The notes: generated from the sequence alone by a model not told the origin. A stretch of 64,000 nt of DNA from a virus (IMGVR_UViG_3300032287_003559:32001-96000); one strand, 5' to 3'. Positions 5,451-61,529 are shown, counted from the first letter of the stretch. A program made the numbers and translations.

Positions 5451-7100
5451 ATGGCCGATGATATTTACTTAGGTAATCCTAATCTAAAAAAAGCAAATAC
5501 TGCTATAGAATTTACTCAAGATCAAATTCTTGAGTTTGTAAAATGTAAAAATGATCCAGTTTATTTTGCAAAAAATTATGTGAAGATTGTCACATTGGAT
5601 CATGGTCTTATGCCTTTTGAAATGTACCCATTTCAAGAAAAATTGGTTAATAACTTTCATAAGCATAGGTTTAATATTTGCAAGATGCCGCGCCAGACCG
5701 GAAAGTCAACTACTGTGGTATCTTTTCTTTTACACTATGCAGTTTTTAACGATAATGTAAATATTGGTATTCTTGCAAACAAAGCAGCTACTGCTAGAGA
5801 ATTATTAGATAGACTTCAAACAGCTTATGAGAATCTTCCCAAATGGATGCAGCAAGGAATCATCTCTTGGAACAAAGGATCTTTGGAACTGGAAAATGGA
5901 AGTAAAATCTTGGCTGCTTCTACTTCTGCTTCTGCGGTTAGGGGCATGTCTTTCAATATCCTATTTTTGGACGAATTTGCGTTCGTTCCGAATCACATTG
6001 CAGATTCGTTCTTTGCTTCTGTTTATCCTACAATTACTTCGGGCAAAAACACAAAAGTAATCATTGTTTCTACACCGCACGGTATGAATCATTTTTACCG
6101 AATGTGGCATGATGCTGAAAAAGGAAAAAACGAATATGTCTTTACAGATGTTCATTGGAGTGAAGTTCCGGGAAGAGATGAACAATGGAAGGCACAAACC
6201 ATTGCAAATACTTCAGAGCAACAATTTAAAGTAGAATTTGAGTGCGAATTTCTTGGATCTGTTGATACTTTGATTGCCCCATCAAAACTTAGAAGCCTTG
6301 TCTATGACCATCCTAAGACTCGTAGCGCGGGTTTAGATGTTTATTTGGATCCGGTAGATCAACATGATTATTTAATTACTGTAGACGTTGCTAGGGGTGT
6401 TGGAAATGATTATTCGGCATTTACTGTTGTAGATATAACTCAATTTCCTCATAGAGTTGTTGCAAAATATAGAAATAATGAAATAAAACCGATGCTTTTT
6501 CCAAGCATAATTCATGAGACAGCAATTGCTTATAATGATGCATATATTCTCTGTGAAGTAAATGATGTTGGAGATCAAGTAGCAAGTATTCTCCAGTATG
6601 ACTTAGAGTATAATAATCTTCTTATGTGCTCTATGAGAGGAAGAGCTGGTCAAATTGTTGGGCAAGGATTTAGTGGAAAGAAAACACAACTTGGAGTTAA
6701 GATGTCCAAAACTGTAAAAAAAGTTGGATGTCTTAATCTCAAGACTATGATAGAAGAAAATAAATTATATTTGAACGATTATGAAATAATTAGTGAACTT
6801 ACAACTTTTATTCAGAAGCACAATTCATTTGAAGCTGAAGAGGGATGTAATGACGATTTGGCAATGTGTTTGGTAATTTATGCATGGTTAGTTGCTCAAG
6901 ATTATTTTAAAGAGTTAACTGATCAAGATGTAAGAAAACGTCTTTATGAAGAGCAAAAAAATCAAATAGAACAGGATATGTCCCCATTTGGATTCATATC
7001 AGATGGATTAGATGAAGAAAGTTTTGTAGATGTTGATGGAGATAGGTGGCATCTTGATGAGTATGGTGATATGGCTCATATGTGGAATTATATGACGTAA
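5451..7100 (+). CDS. gp17: Terminase large subunit gp17
   Basis: YLGNPNLK start, Walker A PRQTGKST, Walker B LFLDEFAF, nuclease motifs DVARG and DDLAM. Confidence 0.97.
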   Translation: MADDIYLGNPNLKKANTAIEFTQDQILEFVKCKNDPVYFAKNYVKIVTLDHGLMPFEMYPFQEKLVNNFHKHRFNICKMPRQTGKSTTVVSFLLHYAVFNDNVNIGILANKAATARELLDRLQTAYENLPKWMQQGIISWNKGSLELENGSKILAASTSASAVRGMSFNILFLDEFAFVPNHIADSFFASVYPTITSGKNTKVIIVSTPHGMNHFYRMWHDAEKGKNEYVFTDVHWSEVPGRDEQWKAQTIANTSEQQFKVEFECEFLGSVDTLIAPSKLRSLVYDHPKTRSAGLDVYLDPVDQHDYLITVDVARGVGNDYSAFTVVDITQFPHRVVAKYRNNEIKPMLFPSIIHETAIAYNDAYILCEVNDVGDQVASILQYDLEYNNLLMCSMRGRAGQIVGQGFSGKKTQLGVKMSKTVKKVGCLNLKTMIEENKLYLNDYEIISELTTFIQKHNSFEAEEGCNDDLAMCLVIYAWLVAQDYFKELTDQDVRKRLYEEQKNQIEQDMSPFGFISDGLDEESFVDVDGDRWHLDEYGDMAHMWNYMT

Positions 7101-53004: not shown

Positions 53005-53160
53005 ATGGTACACATTACAGACATTTACGAACTAAAAGCAAGACTTGATGGTCTTAAGCACCAACTTGAGAATGAAAATTTGCCTTGGCATGAGAAACAA
53101 CTAGCTCATAAATATCTGAACAAGGCAATGGATTATGTGAATGAGTTGCAGTTATATTAA
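53005..53160 (+). CDS. 51-aa hypothetical protein (not in ORF track)
   Basis: MVHITDIYELKARLDGLKHQL...AHKYLNKAMDYVNELQLY. Confidence 0.55.
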   Translation: MVHITDIYELKARLDGLKHQLENENLPWHEKQLAHKYLNKAMDYVNELQLY

Positions 53161-53578
53161 TCCCTGGTATTATGGTAACAAGTCTTTTGAATCTGAAGAT
53201 ATAGAAGATTATTATGGGTTTGTTTATTTGATCGAGAATAAACTAAATGGTAGAAAATATATCGGAAGAAAATATTTTTGGCAGTTTAGAACTCCAAAAG
53301 GTAAAAAAAGAAAAGTAAAATCTGAATCTAATTGGAAGGATTACTATGGGTCTTGTCCGGAACTTAAAGAAGACATTGACAAATTTGGCAGAGAAAATTT
53401 TAGTAGAACTATCTTATCATTACATAAAACAAAGGGCAAAACAAACTTTGAGGAGACCAGACGACTCTTCAACCACAATGTTCTCACAGAATCCCTTGAC
53501 GGTGGAGTCCCAGCGTTCTACAATAGCAACATCCTCAACAGGTACTTCCGAAAAGATTATTATGGAAACAACGACTGA
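53141..53578 (+). CDS. GIY-YIG-family endonuclease-like protein
   Basis: GFVYLIEN..NGRKYIGRK, YYGS, FYNSNI. Confidence 0.8.
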   Translation: MSCSYINPWYYGNKSFESEDIEDYYGFVYLIENKLNGRKYIGRKYFWQFRTPKGKKRKVKSESNWKDYYGSCPELKEDIDKFGRENFSRTILSLHKTKGKTNFEETRRLFNHNVLTESLDGGVPAFYNSNILNRYFRKDYYGNND

Positions 53579-54562: not shown

Positions 54563-54982
54563 ATGCTTAATTTCAACTTCGGAAACAAGAGACCTGATAA
54601 GAAGCAAATCGTCCTTGTAAGCGTCGTATTAAGCACGATAGTAGCAACTCTCTCCCAATGCACTGGAGCGCCCTCAGAGCGCCTCTGGGACCTCTTAGAC
54701 GAGGTTCAGAGGAGGTTCTTCCCCCAGACCATAATTAACGATGTTCTCCTTAAAGATCCTGGAGTTGTTAAAAGAAGAGCGAAAAGAGATGTTGATCAAG
54801 CTATATGGGATTATGAACGCTTGACTGGATATTCAAATGAGCCTAGAATACCTTTGCCGAGGTTGATAGAGAAATCTCCAGAAGCTTCTAAGTGTTATAC
54901 TGAAGAGTGTAAAAAACTTGGAGGAGAAATGAGACTTTGCTCTCCATGGCTTGACGATTGCGTTAAAGAACCTGTACAATAG
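54563..54982 (+). CDS. Hypothetical membrane-anchored protein
   Basis: N-terminal hydrophobic helix; C-terminal CYTEEC...MRLCSPW..DC. Confidence 0.7.
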   Translation: MLNFNFGNKRPDKKQIVLVSVVLSTIVATLSQCTGAPSERLWDLLDEVQRRFFPQTIINDVLLKDPGVVKRRAKRDVDQAIWDYERLTGYSNEPRIPLPRLIEKSPEASKCYTEECKKLGGEMRLCSPWLDDCVKEPVQ

Positions 54983-55102: not shown

Positions 55103-55187
55103 TGTCTTATGAGCGGTGAGGGTCCAAACCTCACATAAGTCTCACCCCTCCTATGCCTCTCAACGATGCACAAACCAGGAGGGCTCT

Positions 55188-55261: not shown

Positions 55262-55288
55262 CTTGGAGTCTTTGATTCCATATATAAA

Positions 55289-55444
55289 AGCGATAGAGGG
55301 TAAGTCCCTGTTATATCCTTATGAGGTATATCACACTTACTCCATCAAATCGTAGGAAGTGCAAACCCTCTCGCTGGTCATAGTATTCTGTGTCTAGATG
55401 AAGGGAAAGGTGATTCTGTCCGCACATAGAAATCCCTCCTACCA
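55289..55444 (+). ncRNA. Unassigned structured RNA candidate in tRNA cluster
   Basis: Several complementary segments, no ORF, ends in CCA just before tRNA-Leu. Confidence 0.4.
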
Positions 55445-55446
55445 TA

Positions 55447-55530: not shown

Positions 55531-55559
55531 TTGACAATCAAACTTAAATAGTTTATGAT
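55531..55559 (+). promoter_or_regulatory. Sigma70-like promoter
   Basis: TTGACA-17nt-TATGAT upstream of tRNA-Gly. Confidence 0.7.
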
Positions 55560-55568
55560 TGTCTTATT

Positions 55569-55640
55569 GCGAAAGTAACTCAACGGTAGAGTCCCTGCCT
55601 TCCAAGCAGGTTGTTGCGAGTTCGAATCTCGTCTTTCGCT
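55569..55640 (+). tRNA. tRNA-Gly(TCC)
   Basis: GCGAAAG/CTTTCGC acceptor, U73; CCTGC-CT-TCC-AA-GCAGG. Confidence 0.95.
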
Positions 55641-55663
55641 CTTGGAGTTTATCTCCACAAATT

Positions 55664-55735
55664 CCGTTGGTAGTCTAGTGGTCAGGACAGGCAGACAATG
55701 CACTTGGAGTTCGGGTTCGATTCCCGACCAGCGGC
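55664..55735 (+). ncRNA. tRNA-like RNA lacking a canonical anticodon arm
   Basis: Acceptor CCGTTGG/CCAGCGG, D arm GTCT/GGAC, T arm TCGGG-TTCGATT-CCCGA intact; anticodon segment cannot form a 5-bp stem with 7-nt loop. Confidence 0.75.
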
Positions 55736-55753: not shown

Positions 55754-55933
55754 ATGGAAGTTGAAGTTAATTCTATTAATATCGCAAGACTTCTAAGTGA
55801 ATTAGAAGGTTGCTACATCTTCACCAAATATATGGGGTTTGAAGATGATATGAACACTCTTGATGAAATGAAGAAAAGATATTATAAACTTTACTTCAAA
55901 CTCTATAAGGAAGAAAAAAGTAATCCCCTGTAG
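55754..55933 (+). CDS. 59-aa hypothetical protein (not in ORF track)
   Basis: MEVEVNSINIARLLSELEG...KRYYKLYFKL; stop lies inside the tRNA-Asn 5' end. Confidence 0.6.
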   Translation: MEVEVNSINIARLLSELEGCYIFTKYMGFEDDMNTLDEMKKRYYKLYFKLYKEEKSNPL

Positions 55934-57541: not shown

Positions 57542-57868
57542 ATGCCAGCAAAAAACCCAAAAGAATACGCTTCGAAGCACTATCAGCAAAATAAATCTTT
57601 ATATGCTGAAAGAAGTAAAGTTGCTAGACTTAGGGTTAAAGAATGGTATAATGAACTTATGAATGATAAGTTCTGTGAAAAATGTGGTGAATCTGATACT
57701 ATTGTATTAGAATGGCATCACATAGATCCATCTAAAAAGGATATGAGCATTGCTGATATGCTTTCGAGAAGAGGAAAACAAACTATCTTAGAAGAGATAG
57801 ATAAGTGTATGTGTCTTTGTGCTAATTGTCACAGAAGATTGCATCATCAAATACGCAACGGGGTGTAG
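57542..57868 (+). CDS. HNH endonuclease (Zn-finger type)
   Basis: CEKCG...LEWHHIDP...KCMCLCANCHRRLH. Confidence 0.88.
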   Translation: MPAKNPKEYASKHYQQNKSLYAERSKVARLRVKEWYNELMNDKFCEKCGESDTIVLEWHHIDPSKKDMSIADMLSRRGKQTILEEIDKCMCLCANCHRRLHHQIRNGV

Positions 57869-57950: not shown

Positions 57951-58181
57951 ATGAAAATGAATCAAGAAATTAACGAACTTACGACATTTACAATTGAAGA
58001 GTTTCAGAATGATTTCGATAACCTTATGAATAGAGTAGAAGGTGGAGAATCGTTCATCATATCAAGTGAGCACGGAAATGCAGTGATTGTACCATACAAC
58101 GAAGTGGTGCAGGTATTTCAAGAATCTGGTGTGAGTGATGAGATCATACGAATACACACCGATCACGAAGAAGGTTCTTGA
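57951..58181 (+). CDS. Hypothetical protein with Phd/YefM-like N-terminal fold
   Basis: FTIEEFQNDFDNLMNRVEGGESFIISSEHGNAVIVP pattern. Confidence 0.65.
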   Translation: MKMNQEINELTTFTIEEFQNDFDNLMNRVEGGESFIISSEHGNAVIVPYNEVVQVFQESGVSDEIIRIHTDHEEGS

Positions 58182-58206
58182 CAAAGAGTTCCAGGTCCTC
58201 TACACT
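58178..58206 (+). promoter_or_regulatory. Sigma70-like promoter
   Basis: TTGACA-17nt-TACACT upstream of the tRNA pair. Confidence 0.65.
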
Positions 58207-58929: not shown

Positions 58930-59330
58930 AGTCTCGGTATGACTTAAAACTAGCCCTGGTCGGGAGCAAACCCCTTATGTCTAAAACAAGTATCTTACGA
59001 TATCTTGGAAACTTTCTCCTTATGATTGGATATCAAACCATGTTATGGGGAGATTTTAAATATGGTTTATTGATAAAAGTTATTGGGGGATTACTCACAG
59101 TACCTTTTGCAATCAAACTTAAACTCTGGGATGTATTATTTTTATGTGCATTCTTTGGGTTTAGTGAGTTTTCAAAACTCATTCAACTTTTCTCAGTTAG
59201 TTAAAACTGAGTGGTGGAGTCAATATGACCCTAGCTAGGTTTCTTGCTTCCTTAAAGAGCAAGTGGTGCGGATGGGACTCTCTCCCGCCTGGTTTCCAAT
59301 TTCCAGTTAAAGAATTGGTGGCGAGCCTGA
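58930..59330 (+). ncRNA. manA-like RNA motif, interrupted by an ORF
   Basis: 5' GTCTCGG..TGAC...GCCCTGGTCGGGA and 3' GGTTTCTTGCTTCC..AAAGAGCAAGTGGTGCGGATGGG...TGGCGAGCCTG recognised from memory as manA-type. Context (after tRNAs, before nucleotide-sugar genes) fits. Not confirmed by a covariance search. Confidence 0.7.
58977..59204 (+). CDS. 75-aa membrane protein nested in the manA-like RNA
   Basis: About three hydrophobic segments; clean ATG...TAA. Confidence 0.65.
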   Translation: MSKTSILRYLGNFLLMIGYQTMLWGDFKYGLLIKVIGGLLTVPFAIKLKLWDVLFLCAFFGFSEFSKLIQLFSVS

Positions 59331-59336
59331 GTTACA

Positions 59337-59403: not shown

Positions 59404-60222
59404 ATGACTTTATCTCTTTATGGTGGAAGTGGATTTGTTGGAGGTAACTTCAAAAAACTATATTCTGATTATGTGGAGATGCAGAGGGATGAAAGAAAGC
59501 CAAAAACAAAAGATATTTTGTATTTCATTTCAACAGTAGATAACTATAATGTTCACGACAAAATTACACTTGACGTAGACACTAATCTAAAAATTCTCTG
59601 TGAAGTTCTGGATTATTGTAGATCAGAAGATATAACTTTTAATTTTATTAGTTCTTGGTTTGTATATGGCAAAACTCCATACATGCCTGCTAGTGAAGAG
59701 AGTCCATGCTTTCCCACAGGATTTTATTCTATTACAAAAAAATGTGCAGAAGATCTTTTAATTTCTTTTTGCAATACCTATAATGTAAAATATCGTATAA
59801 TGAGATTATGTAATGTTTTGGGTTCTGGTGATCAAAAAGCATCTAGAAAAAAGAATGCAATTACTTGGATGATCGATCAACTTAAGATAGATCATGACAT
59901 TTCTCTATACGACGGAGGATCAAATTGTAGAGATGTGATGCATGTTCAAGATGTTTGTAGGGCAATTAAACTCATTTGCGATAAAGGAAAAACAAACGAA
60001 ATTTATAATGTAGGGTCTGGAAAACCAACTACAATAGGAGAGATTATTTCTTTATCTAAGCATTATCTCAATTCTAAATCTAAAATCAATTATATTGATC
60101 CTCCAGAATTTCATAATAATGTTCAAACAAAAAATTTCTGGATGGACACCAAAAAACTAAAATCCCTTGGATTTGAACCAAAACTTTCTTTAGAATTTAT
60201 CATCAAAGATCTATGTCTGTAA
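59404..60222 (+). CDS. NAD-dependent epimerase/dehydratase (extended SDR)
   Basis: GGSGFVG, FISSWFVYG, YSITK (YxxxK), RDVMHVQD. Confidence 0.9.
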   Translation: MTLSLYGGSGFVGGNFKKLYSDYVEMQRDERKPKTKDILYFISTVDNYNVHDKITLDVDTNLKILCEVLDYCRSEDITFNFISSWFVYGKTPYMPASEESPCFPTGFYSITKKCAEDLLISFCNTYNVKYRIMRLCNVLGSGDQKASRKKNAITWMIDQLKIDHDISLYDGGSNCRDVMHVQDVCRAIKLICDKGKTNEIYNVGSGKPTTIGEIISLSKHYLNSKSKINYIDPPEFHNNVQTKNFWMDTKKLKSLGFEPKLSLEFIIKDLCL

Positions 60223-61529
60223 CTGAAAAAGTATCTAATTTCATTACTTCATTGCAGGAAGATGGAGAAAAATTATTTCCATATCTAGCAAATGAGAGAT
60301 GGAAACGTGGAAATAATGTTTACTATTCTGGTCCATATTGGGACCAAAAAGAAGTGTCTGCTGCAATTACGACGCTTCTAGAAGGTAAATGGCTTCCTGC
60401 AGGAGAAGAAGTAAATAAATTTGAACGACAGTTTTCTAAGAAGTTTGGATTTGATTATTCTGTAATGGTGAACTCTGGTAGTTCAGCCAATCTTGTAATG
60501 ATTTCTGCACTCAAAAAATATTTTGAGTGGAAGGATGGAGATGAAATTATTGTTTGTGTCTGTGGATTTCCAACTACAATTAATCCAATTATTCAGAATA
60601 ACTTAAAACCAGTTTTTGTTGATATAAGTTATGATGATTTAAACTGGAATCTTTCACAAATTAAAGAAAAGATTACAACTAGAACTCGCGCAGTATTCTC
60701 CTCACCAGTTCTTGGAAATCCTTATGATTATGATGCACTTCTTGATATCTGCAATCGTTATAACATTAAGTTGATTGCTGATAATTGCGATAGTCTTGGA
60801 AGTAAGTGGAAAGGTGAATATCTTACAGAACATGCTGTAGCTGCATCTTGTTCTTTTTATCCCGCACATCATATCTCTACAATTGAAGGTGGTATGGTAT
60901 CGTCTAATATTAAAGAAATTGTAGATATTGCCCGTAGTTTTGCCTGGTGGGGTAGGGATTGTTATTGCGTTGGACCACAAAATCTTCTTGAGTGTGGAGT
61001 TTGTGGTAAAAGATTTGACCACTGGCTAGATGGATATGATAAAGTTGTTGATCATAAGTATGTCTTTGGTAATATTGGATATAACTTGAAACCAGCAGAT
61101 CTTCAGGGGTCAATTGGACTTGTACAACTTGAAAAGTTTGATGAGGTCCATCAAAAACGTCGTCATAATAAAGAACGAATTCATAAAATTTTTGAGAATA
61201 TTCCTTTTTGTAGGGTCATTTCTGAAAGATCCGATGCAGAAACTAGTTGGTTTGGTGTTCCTATTGTTTTTGAGTATGATAAACCTGGATTAGTCAAATG
61301 GTTAGAAAATCATAAAATTCAAACACGTAATTATTTTGCTGGAAATATTTTAATGCATCCTGCATATAAACATATTGAACCAGCAAGTAATTATCCAAAT
61401 GCTTCTAAAGTTCTAGATAATGTATTCTTTGTCGGATGTTCTCCAACTATTACAGATGAAATGATTGATTATATCGAAGAAGTTGTAGAAGAATATAAGA
61501 AATCAAATATCCTACATCATCCAGTATAA
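60213..61529 (+). CDS. rfbH: RfbH/DdhC-like NDP-4-keto-6-deoxysugar 3-dehydratase (DegT family)
   Basis: NSGSSANL, DNCDSLGS, SFYPAHHIST.EGG (His at the PLP-Lys position), WGRDCYC, DHKY, GYNLK. Confidence 0.82.
   Translation: MSVTEKVSNFITSLQEDGEKLFPYLANERWKRGNNVYYSGPYWDQKEVSAAITTLLEGKWLPAGEEVNKFERQFSKKFGFDYSVMVNSGSSANLVMISALKKYFEWKDGDEIIVCVCGFPTTINPIIQNNLKPVFVDISYDDLNWNLSQIKEKITTRTRAVFSSPVLGNPYDYDALLDICNRYNIKLIADNCDSLGSKWKGEYLTEHAVAASCSFYPAHHISTIEGGMVSSNIKEIVDIARSFAWWGRDCYCVGPQNLLECGVCGKRFDHWLDGYDKVVDHKYVFGNIGYNLKPADLQGSIGLVQLEKFDEVHQKRRHNKERIHKIFENIPFCRVISERSDAETSWFGVPIVFEYDKPGLVKWLENHKIQTRNYFAGNILMHPAYKHIEPASNYPNASKVLDNVFFVGCSPTITDEMIDYIEEVVEEYKKSNILHHPV

Follow-up and report, generated by a model that had tools for sequence, protein, structure and literature searches.

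The DNA at positions 55664–55735 of the window, the 64,000-nt stretch that was analysed as a whole, encodes a small RNA that has the acceptor stem, D arm and T arm of a tRNA, together with a short, capped hairpin in the place of the anticodon arm. We consider it highly probable that this element, which we call the mimic, is a selected, non-decoding tRNA-like RNA. The window is taken from an IMG/VR virus record of 175 kb that is 82% complete, and its closest database relatives are Synechococcus myoviruses of the Kyanoviridae. ARAGORN and an Rfam scan of the window found 12 tRNA calls (ARAGORN), a wcaG RNA and an abiF RNA. The mimic lies in a tRNA array, with tRNA-Gly(UCC) on its 5' side and tRNA-Asn(GUU) on its 3' side. 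Its parts and immediate surroundings are as follows.

55531–55559, + strand: sigma-70-like promoter, TTGACA/17-nt spacer/TATGAT, before tRNA-Gly and the mimic; a consensus match only, at 11 of 12 positions
55569–55641, + strand: tRNA-Gly(UCC), the upstream neighbour, probably on the same transcript as the mimic (ARAGORN, Rfam)
55643–55657, + strand: UGGAG-UUUAU-CUCCA, a small hairpin within the 22 nt that separate tRNA-Gly from the mimic, from the sequence
55664–55735, + strand: the complete gene for the tRNA-shaped RNA, 72 nt long with the discriminator C (55735) counted
55664–55670, + strand: 5' strand of the acceptor stem, CCGUUGG, with its partner at 55728–55734; double-sided changes at 7 of 7 pairs in 106 relatives
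55673–55688, + strand: D arm, stem GUCU/GGAC, loop AGUGGUCA, with A14, G18, G19 and A21 present
55690–55703, + strand: stub in place of the anticodon arm; 4 of 4 pairs covary
55704–55710, + strand: variable region UUGGAGU, 7 nt, unpaired; consensus (U/A)U(G/A)GA(A/G/U)(A/U)
55711–55727, + strand: T arm, stem UCGGG/CCCGA, loop UUCGAUU; 4 of 5 pairs covary, with 98.9% of cells paired
55728–55734, + strand: 3' strand of the acceptor stem, CCAGCGG, from sequence and covariation
55754–55933: small ORF, DUF7212, directly 3' of the mimic

The acceptor stem of the window copy has 7 pairs, one of which is U4-G69. The last pair, 7:66, is G-C in this copy and a G·A mismatch in 74 of the 106 relatives. 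U8 and A9 join the acceptor stem to the D arm, whose stem strands (55673–55676 and 55685–55688) end in a U-G pair, and the T stem is formed by 55711–55715 with 55723–55727. The bases of the tRNA elbow and core are kept (U8, A14, G18, G19, A21, T54, T55, C56 and A58), and CCA is not encoded, as is also the case for the neighbouring tRNAs. A sequence-only reading had proposed a 7-bp acceptor stem, a D loop with GG and an intact T arm at this site, and all three are confirmed from the sequence. A26 follows the D arm, and then come 21 nt (55690–55710) where the anticodon arm would stand. The same reading held that these 21 nt cannot form a canonical anticodon arm and lack U33, which is correct; the alignment to the Rfam tRNA model skips the arm. 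It further proposed two 3-bp hairpins in the 21 nt. Instead, the minimum free energy fold, RNAalifold on 106 relatives and the covariation all give a single hairpin. In the window copy, the pairs of this stub are G27-C40 (55690-55703), G28-C38 (55691-55701), C29-G37 (55692-55700) and A30-U36 (55693-55699), with A39 bulged (55702) and a GACAA loop at 55694–55698. The single-sequence fold gives the stub hairpin with z = −1.41, which is unremarkable alone, and the above-chance support for the fold comes from the comparative evidence.

Homologues of the mimic were found by BLAST in six isolated Synechococcus myoviruses: S-PM2, S-RIM8 (one isolate), S-RIM32, S-CREM1, DSL-LC03 and S-SZBM1. In the six-way alignment, the middle of the RNA differs by compensating changes, GCA/UGC, CCC/GGG and GUG/CAC. 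The first pattern scan of IMG/VR matched at least 119 contigs and gave 125 copies, with 106 distinct 82-nt cores; the mimic is seen in more than 120 IMG/VR contigs, and there are at least 140 copies overall (142 in the loci collected). On the alignment of the 106 cores, 94.9% of cells are paired in the proposed structure, compared with 81.2% in shuffles, and 15 of the 20 pairs have changed on both sides. Covariation scores 0.413 in the alignment and 0.135 in shuffles, of which 0 of 500 reach the observed value, and the score falls to 0.13 or less when the pairing partners are slid by 1–3 columns. RNAalifold, given no structure, recovers the acceptor stem, the D stem, the T arm and, in the stub, three pairs around a 5-nt loop. 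A covariance model of the family scores the window copy at 91.4 bits and the genuine tRNAs of the same genome at 28 bits or less. With this model, myovirus copies score 72–94 bits, podovirus copies (see below) 51–55 bits and genuine tRNAs 33 bits or less. The mimic is present once in the window genome, in which no second or divergent copy was found.

The earlier reading had called for a search for homologues with conserved acceptor, D and T arms and an atypical middle, and this is what is found in more than 100 distinct relatives. We also looked for close relatives with a normal tRNA at this position, which would have spoken for a recent lesion. None was found among the relatives examined; the stub is shared instead. 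The proposal that the RNA is a selected, non-decoding tRNA mimic rather than a product of random decay is thus supported, since the abnormal arm is shared by more than 100 relatives with compensatory changes.

The stub is the best-supported helix of the structure, with 99.1% of cells paired across the 106 relatives. All of the main-family (myovirus-type) copies have a 4-bp stub and the bulged A. The substitutions at the four pairs, in order, are G-C/C-G/A-U, G-C/C-G/G-U, C-G/U-A/G-C and G-C/A-U/C-G/U-A. The bulged A is invariant (106/106), and the bases after it, U-(G/A)-G-A, are nearly so. In the variable region, alignment column 47 is G in 106/106, column 48 is A in 105/106 and column 45 is U in 104/106. 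Position 26 covaries with the first base of the variable region (A-U in 64, G·A in 33), like the 26:44 pair of tRNA. As the first scan pattern prescribed both the D arm and the GACAA loop, their invariance was judged on smaller, unconstrained samples. The D arm is identical or nearly identical across all relatives obtained by BLAST without a pattern constraint. The loop in the main family is GACAA in 112 copies, a count inflated by the fixed loop of the first scan, GAUAA in 4, GUCAA in 1 and AACAA in 1; the further scans added just six variant-loop copies. A scan of IMG/VR without any loop constraint (at least 120 contigs) contributed five of these variants among the matches listed, four with GAUAA and one with GUCAA. 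Another scan, in which the first loop base could be anything but G, gave 19 contigs, which comprised 10 normal tRNAs that share the D arm (6 Glu-UUC, 3 Gln and 1 Asp), the single AACAA member and 8 members of a second subfamily. Since the loop-relaxed scans added few variants, we describe the loop as G-N-(Y)-A-A, overwhelmingly GACAA. That the loop stays fixed while the stem changes at every pair suggests that the loop itself is recognized.

The GACAA pentaloop is identical to that of P22 boxB, the N-peptide site, where it is bound by an arginine-rich peptide and, in the N-peptide complex (PDB 1A4T), takes up the fold of a GNRA tetraloop, its cytosine being looped out (PMC12550061). The mimic loop conforms to the boxB-type G-N-(N)-R-A pattern with a variable looped-out base, AACAA being the one exception. 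The natural variants also suit a GNRA-like fold, as GA(U)AA reads GAAA and GU(C)AA reads GUAA. We infer from these sequences that the mimic loop shares the GNRA-like fold of P22 boxB. Both loops cap a short, G-C-rich stem; however, the hairpin of the mimic stands within a tRNA body, has an invariant bulged A and appears to lack a nut-site context. The notion that the loop displays GAC-A as an Asp codon, in the manner of a T-box specifier pairing with tRNA-Asp, was rejected because this is a closed GNRA-type pentaloop in which the C varies to U.

The second subfamily is found in nine T7-like uncultured contigs (L139, at 6626–6706, L063, L100, L126, L129, L130, L140, L142 and L143), which encode T7-type portal, scaffold, major capsid and tail-tube proteins. 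Its acceptor stem is UCUUCCA/UGGAAGA and its stub differs slightly from that of the main family; the loop is GACAU in 7 contigs and GACAA in 2. In all nine contigs, the mimic is the sole tRNA-like gene. It always lies 5' of the major capsid gene, the distance from its D arm to the capsid-gene match being about 190–300 nt, and on contigs that include the scaffold gene it lies 3' of that gene. Five of these podovirus contigs have an identical RNA core, while their portal and capsid proteins are only about 54–56% identical to those of L139. BLAST gave no match to this subfamily in isolated phages, and its members come from metagenomes only. The subgroup to which the window copy belongs, with D loop AGUGGUCA and T stem UCGGG, is the myoviral type nearest the podoviral one.

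A pattern search of one genome each from 185,579 bacterial and archaeal species (596 Gb) returned 3 contigs, all of them cyanophage. A 413-bp contig is identical to the S-PM2 locus, an S-CREM1-like contig lies in an actinobacterial MAG and a 515-bp contig carries other phage-array tRNAs. These sequences, NZ_FBWL01000046.1 (L147), CAYVOK010000038.1 (L145) and JAURGL010000262.1 (L146), are filed as a Clostridium sp. isolate, an Acidimicrobiaceae MAG and a Vulcanococcus MAG, respectively. The match of the 413-bp 'Clostridium' contig to the S-PM2 mimic locus suggests contamination or mis-binning. The family is thus phage-only: it is found in cyanophages and is absent from the cellular genomes save for these three stray cyanophage contigs.

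How existing tools and records treat the mimic was also considered. The sequence-only reading had anticipated a pseudogene or undetermined call; ARAGORN instead labels the window copy tRNA-His(atg), a forced assignment. Over the family, 116 copies receive a tRNA call from ARAGORN, as Leu(caa) in 61, His(atg) in 34, Cys(aca) in 7 and Val(aac) in 3, with the isotype undetermined in 11. In a permissive local scan, the Rfam tRNA model (RF00005) gives the window copy 38.9 bits, compared with a cut-off of 29, and passes over the anticodon arm as a local gap. In the whole-window Rfam scan at the gathering threshold, the mimic is not listed. No Rfam family besides tRNA matches it at E values up to 10, and the family is absent from Rfam 15. 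The feature tables of S-CREM1, S-RIM32, S-RIM8 and S-SZBM1 list tRNAs yet leave the mimic unannotated; the tables consulted for DSL-LC03 and S-PM2 contain no tRNA entries. In S-RIM8 (KX349286; L004, 1496–1569), the locus tag RW03080701_027 is missing exactly at the mimic, between tRNA-Thr (_026) and tRNA-Ala (_028), and the depositors may have recorded a product-less gene there. No description of the family or of its role was found in the databases and papers searched, in which the one probable trace is a pseudogene footnote on S-PM2 (see below). The mimic is a new family within a known general kind, the tRNA-like non-coding RNAs.

The ORFs around the array encode NrdB, a SegE-like endonuclease, a tail lysozyme, the DUF7212 protein, a ferritin-like protein, an HNH endonuclease, an epimerase and an aminotransferase, and no tRNA-related function was found among those neighbouring the mimic. 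The window also encodes sugar-modifying enzymes. The gene for the SegE-like GIY-YIG homing endonuclease (53141–53578, +) lies just 5' of the tRNA array, and that for the HNH endonuclease, a weak match (57542–57868, +), lies within it. Both fit the known mobility of the cyanophage tRNA hot spot, as the tRNA regions of these phages are hot spots for mobile genes (PMC3037559). Between 53500 and 59500, the + strand has 29 sigma-70-like sites, against 15.1 expected. Several matches stand right before single tRNAs, for example at 54951–54980 (tRNA-Tyr), 55531–55559 (tRNA-Gly) and 58178–58206 (tRNA-Ile). The excess of promoter matches suggests that the array may be divided into many short transcription units.

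The mimic-bearing phages differ in what lies 5' of the mimic: tRNA-Gly, tRNA-Met, tRNA-Asn, others or an unannotated structured RNA. The gap to the next tRNA is often just 2–4 nt. One contig (L131) shares with the window both the stub and the tRNA order (Tyr, Arg, Gly, mimic, Asn, Val, Ser, Pro, Ile, Met), and the spacer hairpin UGGAG-UUUAU-CUCCA recurs upstream of the mimic in some related contigs. Other structured RNAs were observed in the array. The abiF RNA (55147–55183, +; 47.6 bits in Rfam) lies just 5' of tRNA-Arg, and the wcaG RNA (59235–59332, +; 103 bits in Rfam) lies 5' of the epimerase and aminotransferase genes at 59404–61529. Between tRNA-Arg and tRNA-Leu, at 55262–55446 (+), there is a conserved structured RNA of about 185 nt without an ORF, which has the core blocks UGUAGG, CCAAAACCUCUC, GUAUUCUGUG and UGAAG and the 3' end CCUACCA. 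No Rfam family matched it, and in many IMG/VR contigs, such as L077 (520–720), a homologue lies immediately 5' of the mimic. L077, from a related cyanophage, also contains at 1603–1688 an 86-nt tRNA that scores 49.2 bits with the Rfam tRNA-Sec model, whose threshold is 47; this is probably a long-arm tRNA-Ser rather than tRNA-Sec.

What is the function of the mimic? The reading that we prefer, and to which we give about an even chance, is that the mimic works in trans: a tRNA-shaped RNA without a decoding function, it would serve as a ligand or decoy for some protein whose recognition depends on the tRNA body rather than on the anticodon. In this mechanism, the mimic would be co-transcribed with its neighbours, here from the sigma-70-like promoter at 55531–55559 through tRNA-Gly. 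The RNA would fold into the tRNA L-shape, and host RNase P and 3' processing would excise it, after which a host enzyme would add CCA. That the mimic is made and excised like the tRNAs is inferred from its tight packing within the tRNA array. The excised RNA would then act in trans on a partner, for which the candidates are a defence effector of the host that targets tRNAs and an enzyme that handles them, with the sequence-invariant D arm, the bulged A and the pentaloop as the contact surface. Candidates of this sort are toxins and defence nucleases that attack the acceptor ends or elbows of tRNAs, and enzymes that read a Glu-type D helix. A decoy for anticodon nucleases is unlikely, since there is no anticodon loop to cut. 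A role with RelA is disfavoured because RelA activation needs codon pairing, which is impossible for the mimic. The 82%-complete window genome has no match to Pth (PF01195), Pth2 (PF01981), Ro60/TROVE (PF05731), the CCA-adding enzyme family (PF01743) or RNA ligase (PF09414). As no phage-encoded partner was found, the partner is probably a host protein or an unrecognized phage protein.

The most substantial alternative to a trans role is a cis-acting processing or stability element, a form of tRNA punctuation in which the fold recruits RNase P and RNase Z to cut the transcript or to define an mRNA end, so that the excised RNA has no job of its own. RNase P and RNase Z read tRNA-body parts such as those the mimic keeps. 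In the nine divergent podovirus contigs, the sole tRNA-like gene has a fixed site before the capsid gene, a position that fits a cis role at least as well as a trans role, and the mimic of the window directly precedes a small ORF. However, the myovirus copies usually lie within a few nucleotides of real tRNAs, which already supply cut sites, so that one more RNase P/Z signal would add nothing. The neighbours of the mimic vary between phages, and what is selected is the 72-nt module whatever its neighbours. Furthermore, RNase P and RNase Z need no sequence-invariant D arm, bulged A or fixed pentaloop, yet these stay constant beyond the needs of folding and processing. On these three grounds, the trans role is favoured, and we regard the cis element as rather unlikely, though a serious contender. 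A role at the level of DNA, for instance as attachment site, homing-endonuclease target or promoter, would suit a mobile-gene hot spot (PMC3037559) with SegE-like GIY-YIG and HNH endonuclease genes nearby. The both-sided compensatory changes in four helices are a signature of RNA pairing, and no host genome among the 185,579 prokaryote species has a matching site, which makes this explanation extremely improbable. The same low probability applies to a decayed tRNA pseudogene. Sullivan et al. (2010) listed S-PM2 with '25* tRNAs, one tRNA as a pseudogene' (PMC3037559), and it is our guess that this footnote refers to the S-PM2 copy of the mimic; the phage records that annotate tRNAs also omit it. 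Against decay, the same abnormal arm occurs in more than 100 distinct relatives with compensatory changes at every stub pair, no relative has a normal arm at the site, and the RNA core is identical in podoviruses whose capsid proteins are about 55% identical. Nor do we find it credible, beyond a very slight chance, that the mimic is a true tRNA that decodes by means of an unusual anticodon loop, with an identity such as the 116 ARAGORN calls give: His(AUG), Leu(CAA) or Cys(ACA). The ARAGORN label flips with trivial changes in the stem, and the 5-nt loop is closed by a covarying Watson–Crick pair, without U33, in an arm that the Rfam tRNA model skips.

A further possibility is that the mimic serves as a carrier, possibly of Glu type, whose tRNA body can be charged with an amino acid for a nonribosomal reaction. 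Its acceptor stem, T arm and elbow are intact, and in E. coli, the D helix is a major identity element for GluRS. The D arm of the mimic, GUCU/GGAC with U13-G22, is nearest to that of phage tRNA-Glu (0.75), although the likeness to tRNA-His (0.74) and tRNA-Gln (0.72) is almost equal. With the acceptor, D and T arms taken together, no clear parent isotype emerges: His, Glu and Gln all score about 0.55–0.62, and the top single matches are mixed. A 6-nt match of the window acceptor to a phage tRNA-Glu (L150–152) is one base out of register and was taken as chance. The contigs that bear the mimic also encode normal tRNA-Glu, tRNA-Gln and tRNA-His, so the mimic is not a substitute for a lost tRNA. 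Among the 106 relatives, the discriminator base is not conserved (A 51, U 37, C 16, G 2), which weakens an aminoacyl-donor role and disfavours specific charging. Position N-1 is not conserved either (T 44, A 42, C 11, G 9), so that there is no conserved G-1 for HisRS. Pair 1:72 is fairly constant, being C-G in 96 of 106, unlike the G-C of tRNA-Glu. Pair 3:70 is G-C in the window copy and mostly U-A in the relatives, with no G3-U70 for AlaRS; there is no long variable arm for SerRS and no anticodon for the synthetases that require one. No gene for a tRNA-dependent transferase was seen nearby in the window. Judged from these sequence features, a specifically charged carrier appears unlikely, and we consider the carrier explanation as a whole improbable.

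To return to the preferred trans-acting ligand or decoy, a more specific form of it may be put forward tentatively, as a possibility that falls well short of an even chance. The mimic could be a decoy or regulator that has been exchanged between two unrelated cyanophage families, in which the Glu/His/Gln-type D arm and the boxB-like pentaloop titrate one host protein. Within this reading, the titrated protein could be a toxin that attacks acceptor ends or elbows, or it could be GluRS or glutamyl-tRNA reductase.

The mimic can be compared with the known systems that it most resembles. With canonical tRNA (RF00005), it shares the 7-bp acceptor stem, G18 and G19 in the D arm, the UUCGAUU T loop, the length of 72 nt and the spacing within the array. 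It differs in having no 5-bp anticodon stem, 7-nt loop, U33 or anticodon, but rather a 14-nt capped stub and a 7-nt variable region. YrlA (a Y RNA), mascRNA (MALAT1) and the tRNA-like domain of tmRNA are likewise tRNA-shaped and non-decoding. These RNAs are processed by tRNA enzymes, and mascRNA has a reduced anticodon arm. However, the mimic scores only 13.1 bits with the YrlA model (RF02553), compared with a cut-off of 69, and the phage genome has no TROVE gene. With the mascRNA-menRNA model (RF01684), it scores 12.1 bits, compared with a cut-off of 42.5. In contrast to tmRNA, it has no G3-U70, stands alone at 72 nt and is accompanied by no ARAGORN call for tmRNA. Species 1 and 2 of the T4 tRNA cluster are stable non-tRNA RNAs that are processed with the tRNAs. 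They are similar to the mimic in being small RNAs inside a T4-type tRNA cluster; they are longer and are not known to form full cloverleaves.

The false isotypes that ARAGORN assigns to the mimic, such as His(ATG), Leu(CAA) and Cys(ACA), can mislead work on codon usage and on the sets of tRNAs that phages carry. The family is present in S-PM2, a long-studied model cyanophage, and in more than 100 uncultured cyanophages from two virus families, which makes it readily testable. The hosts, Synechococcus and its relatives, are major primary producers, which gives the family ecological relevance. Phage tRNAs are usually explained by codon supply or by the replacement of tRNAs cut by host defences, and an RNA with a sealed decoding loop can do neither. 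The mimic suggests that the tRNA shape is put to some other, separate use in infected cells. If it is indeed a decoy exchanged between the two phage families, the phage would protect or reprogramme the tRNA pool of its host without joining in decoding.
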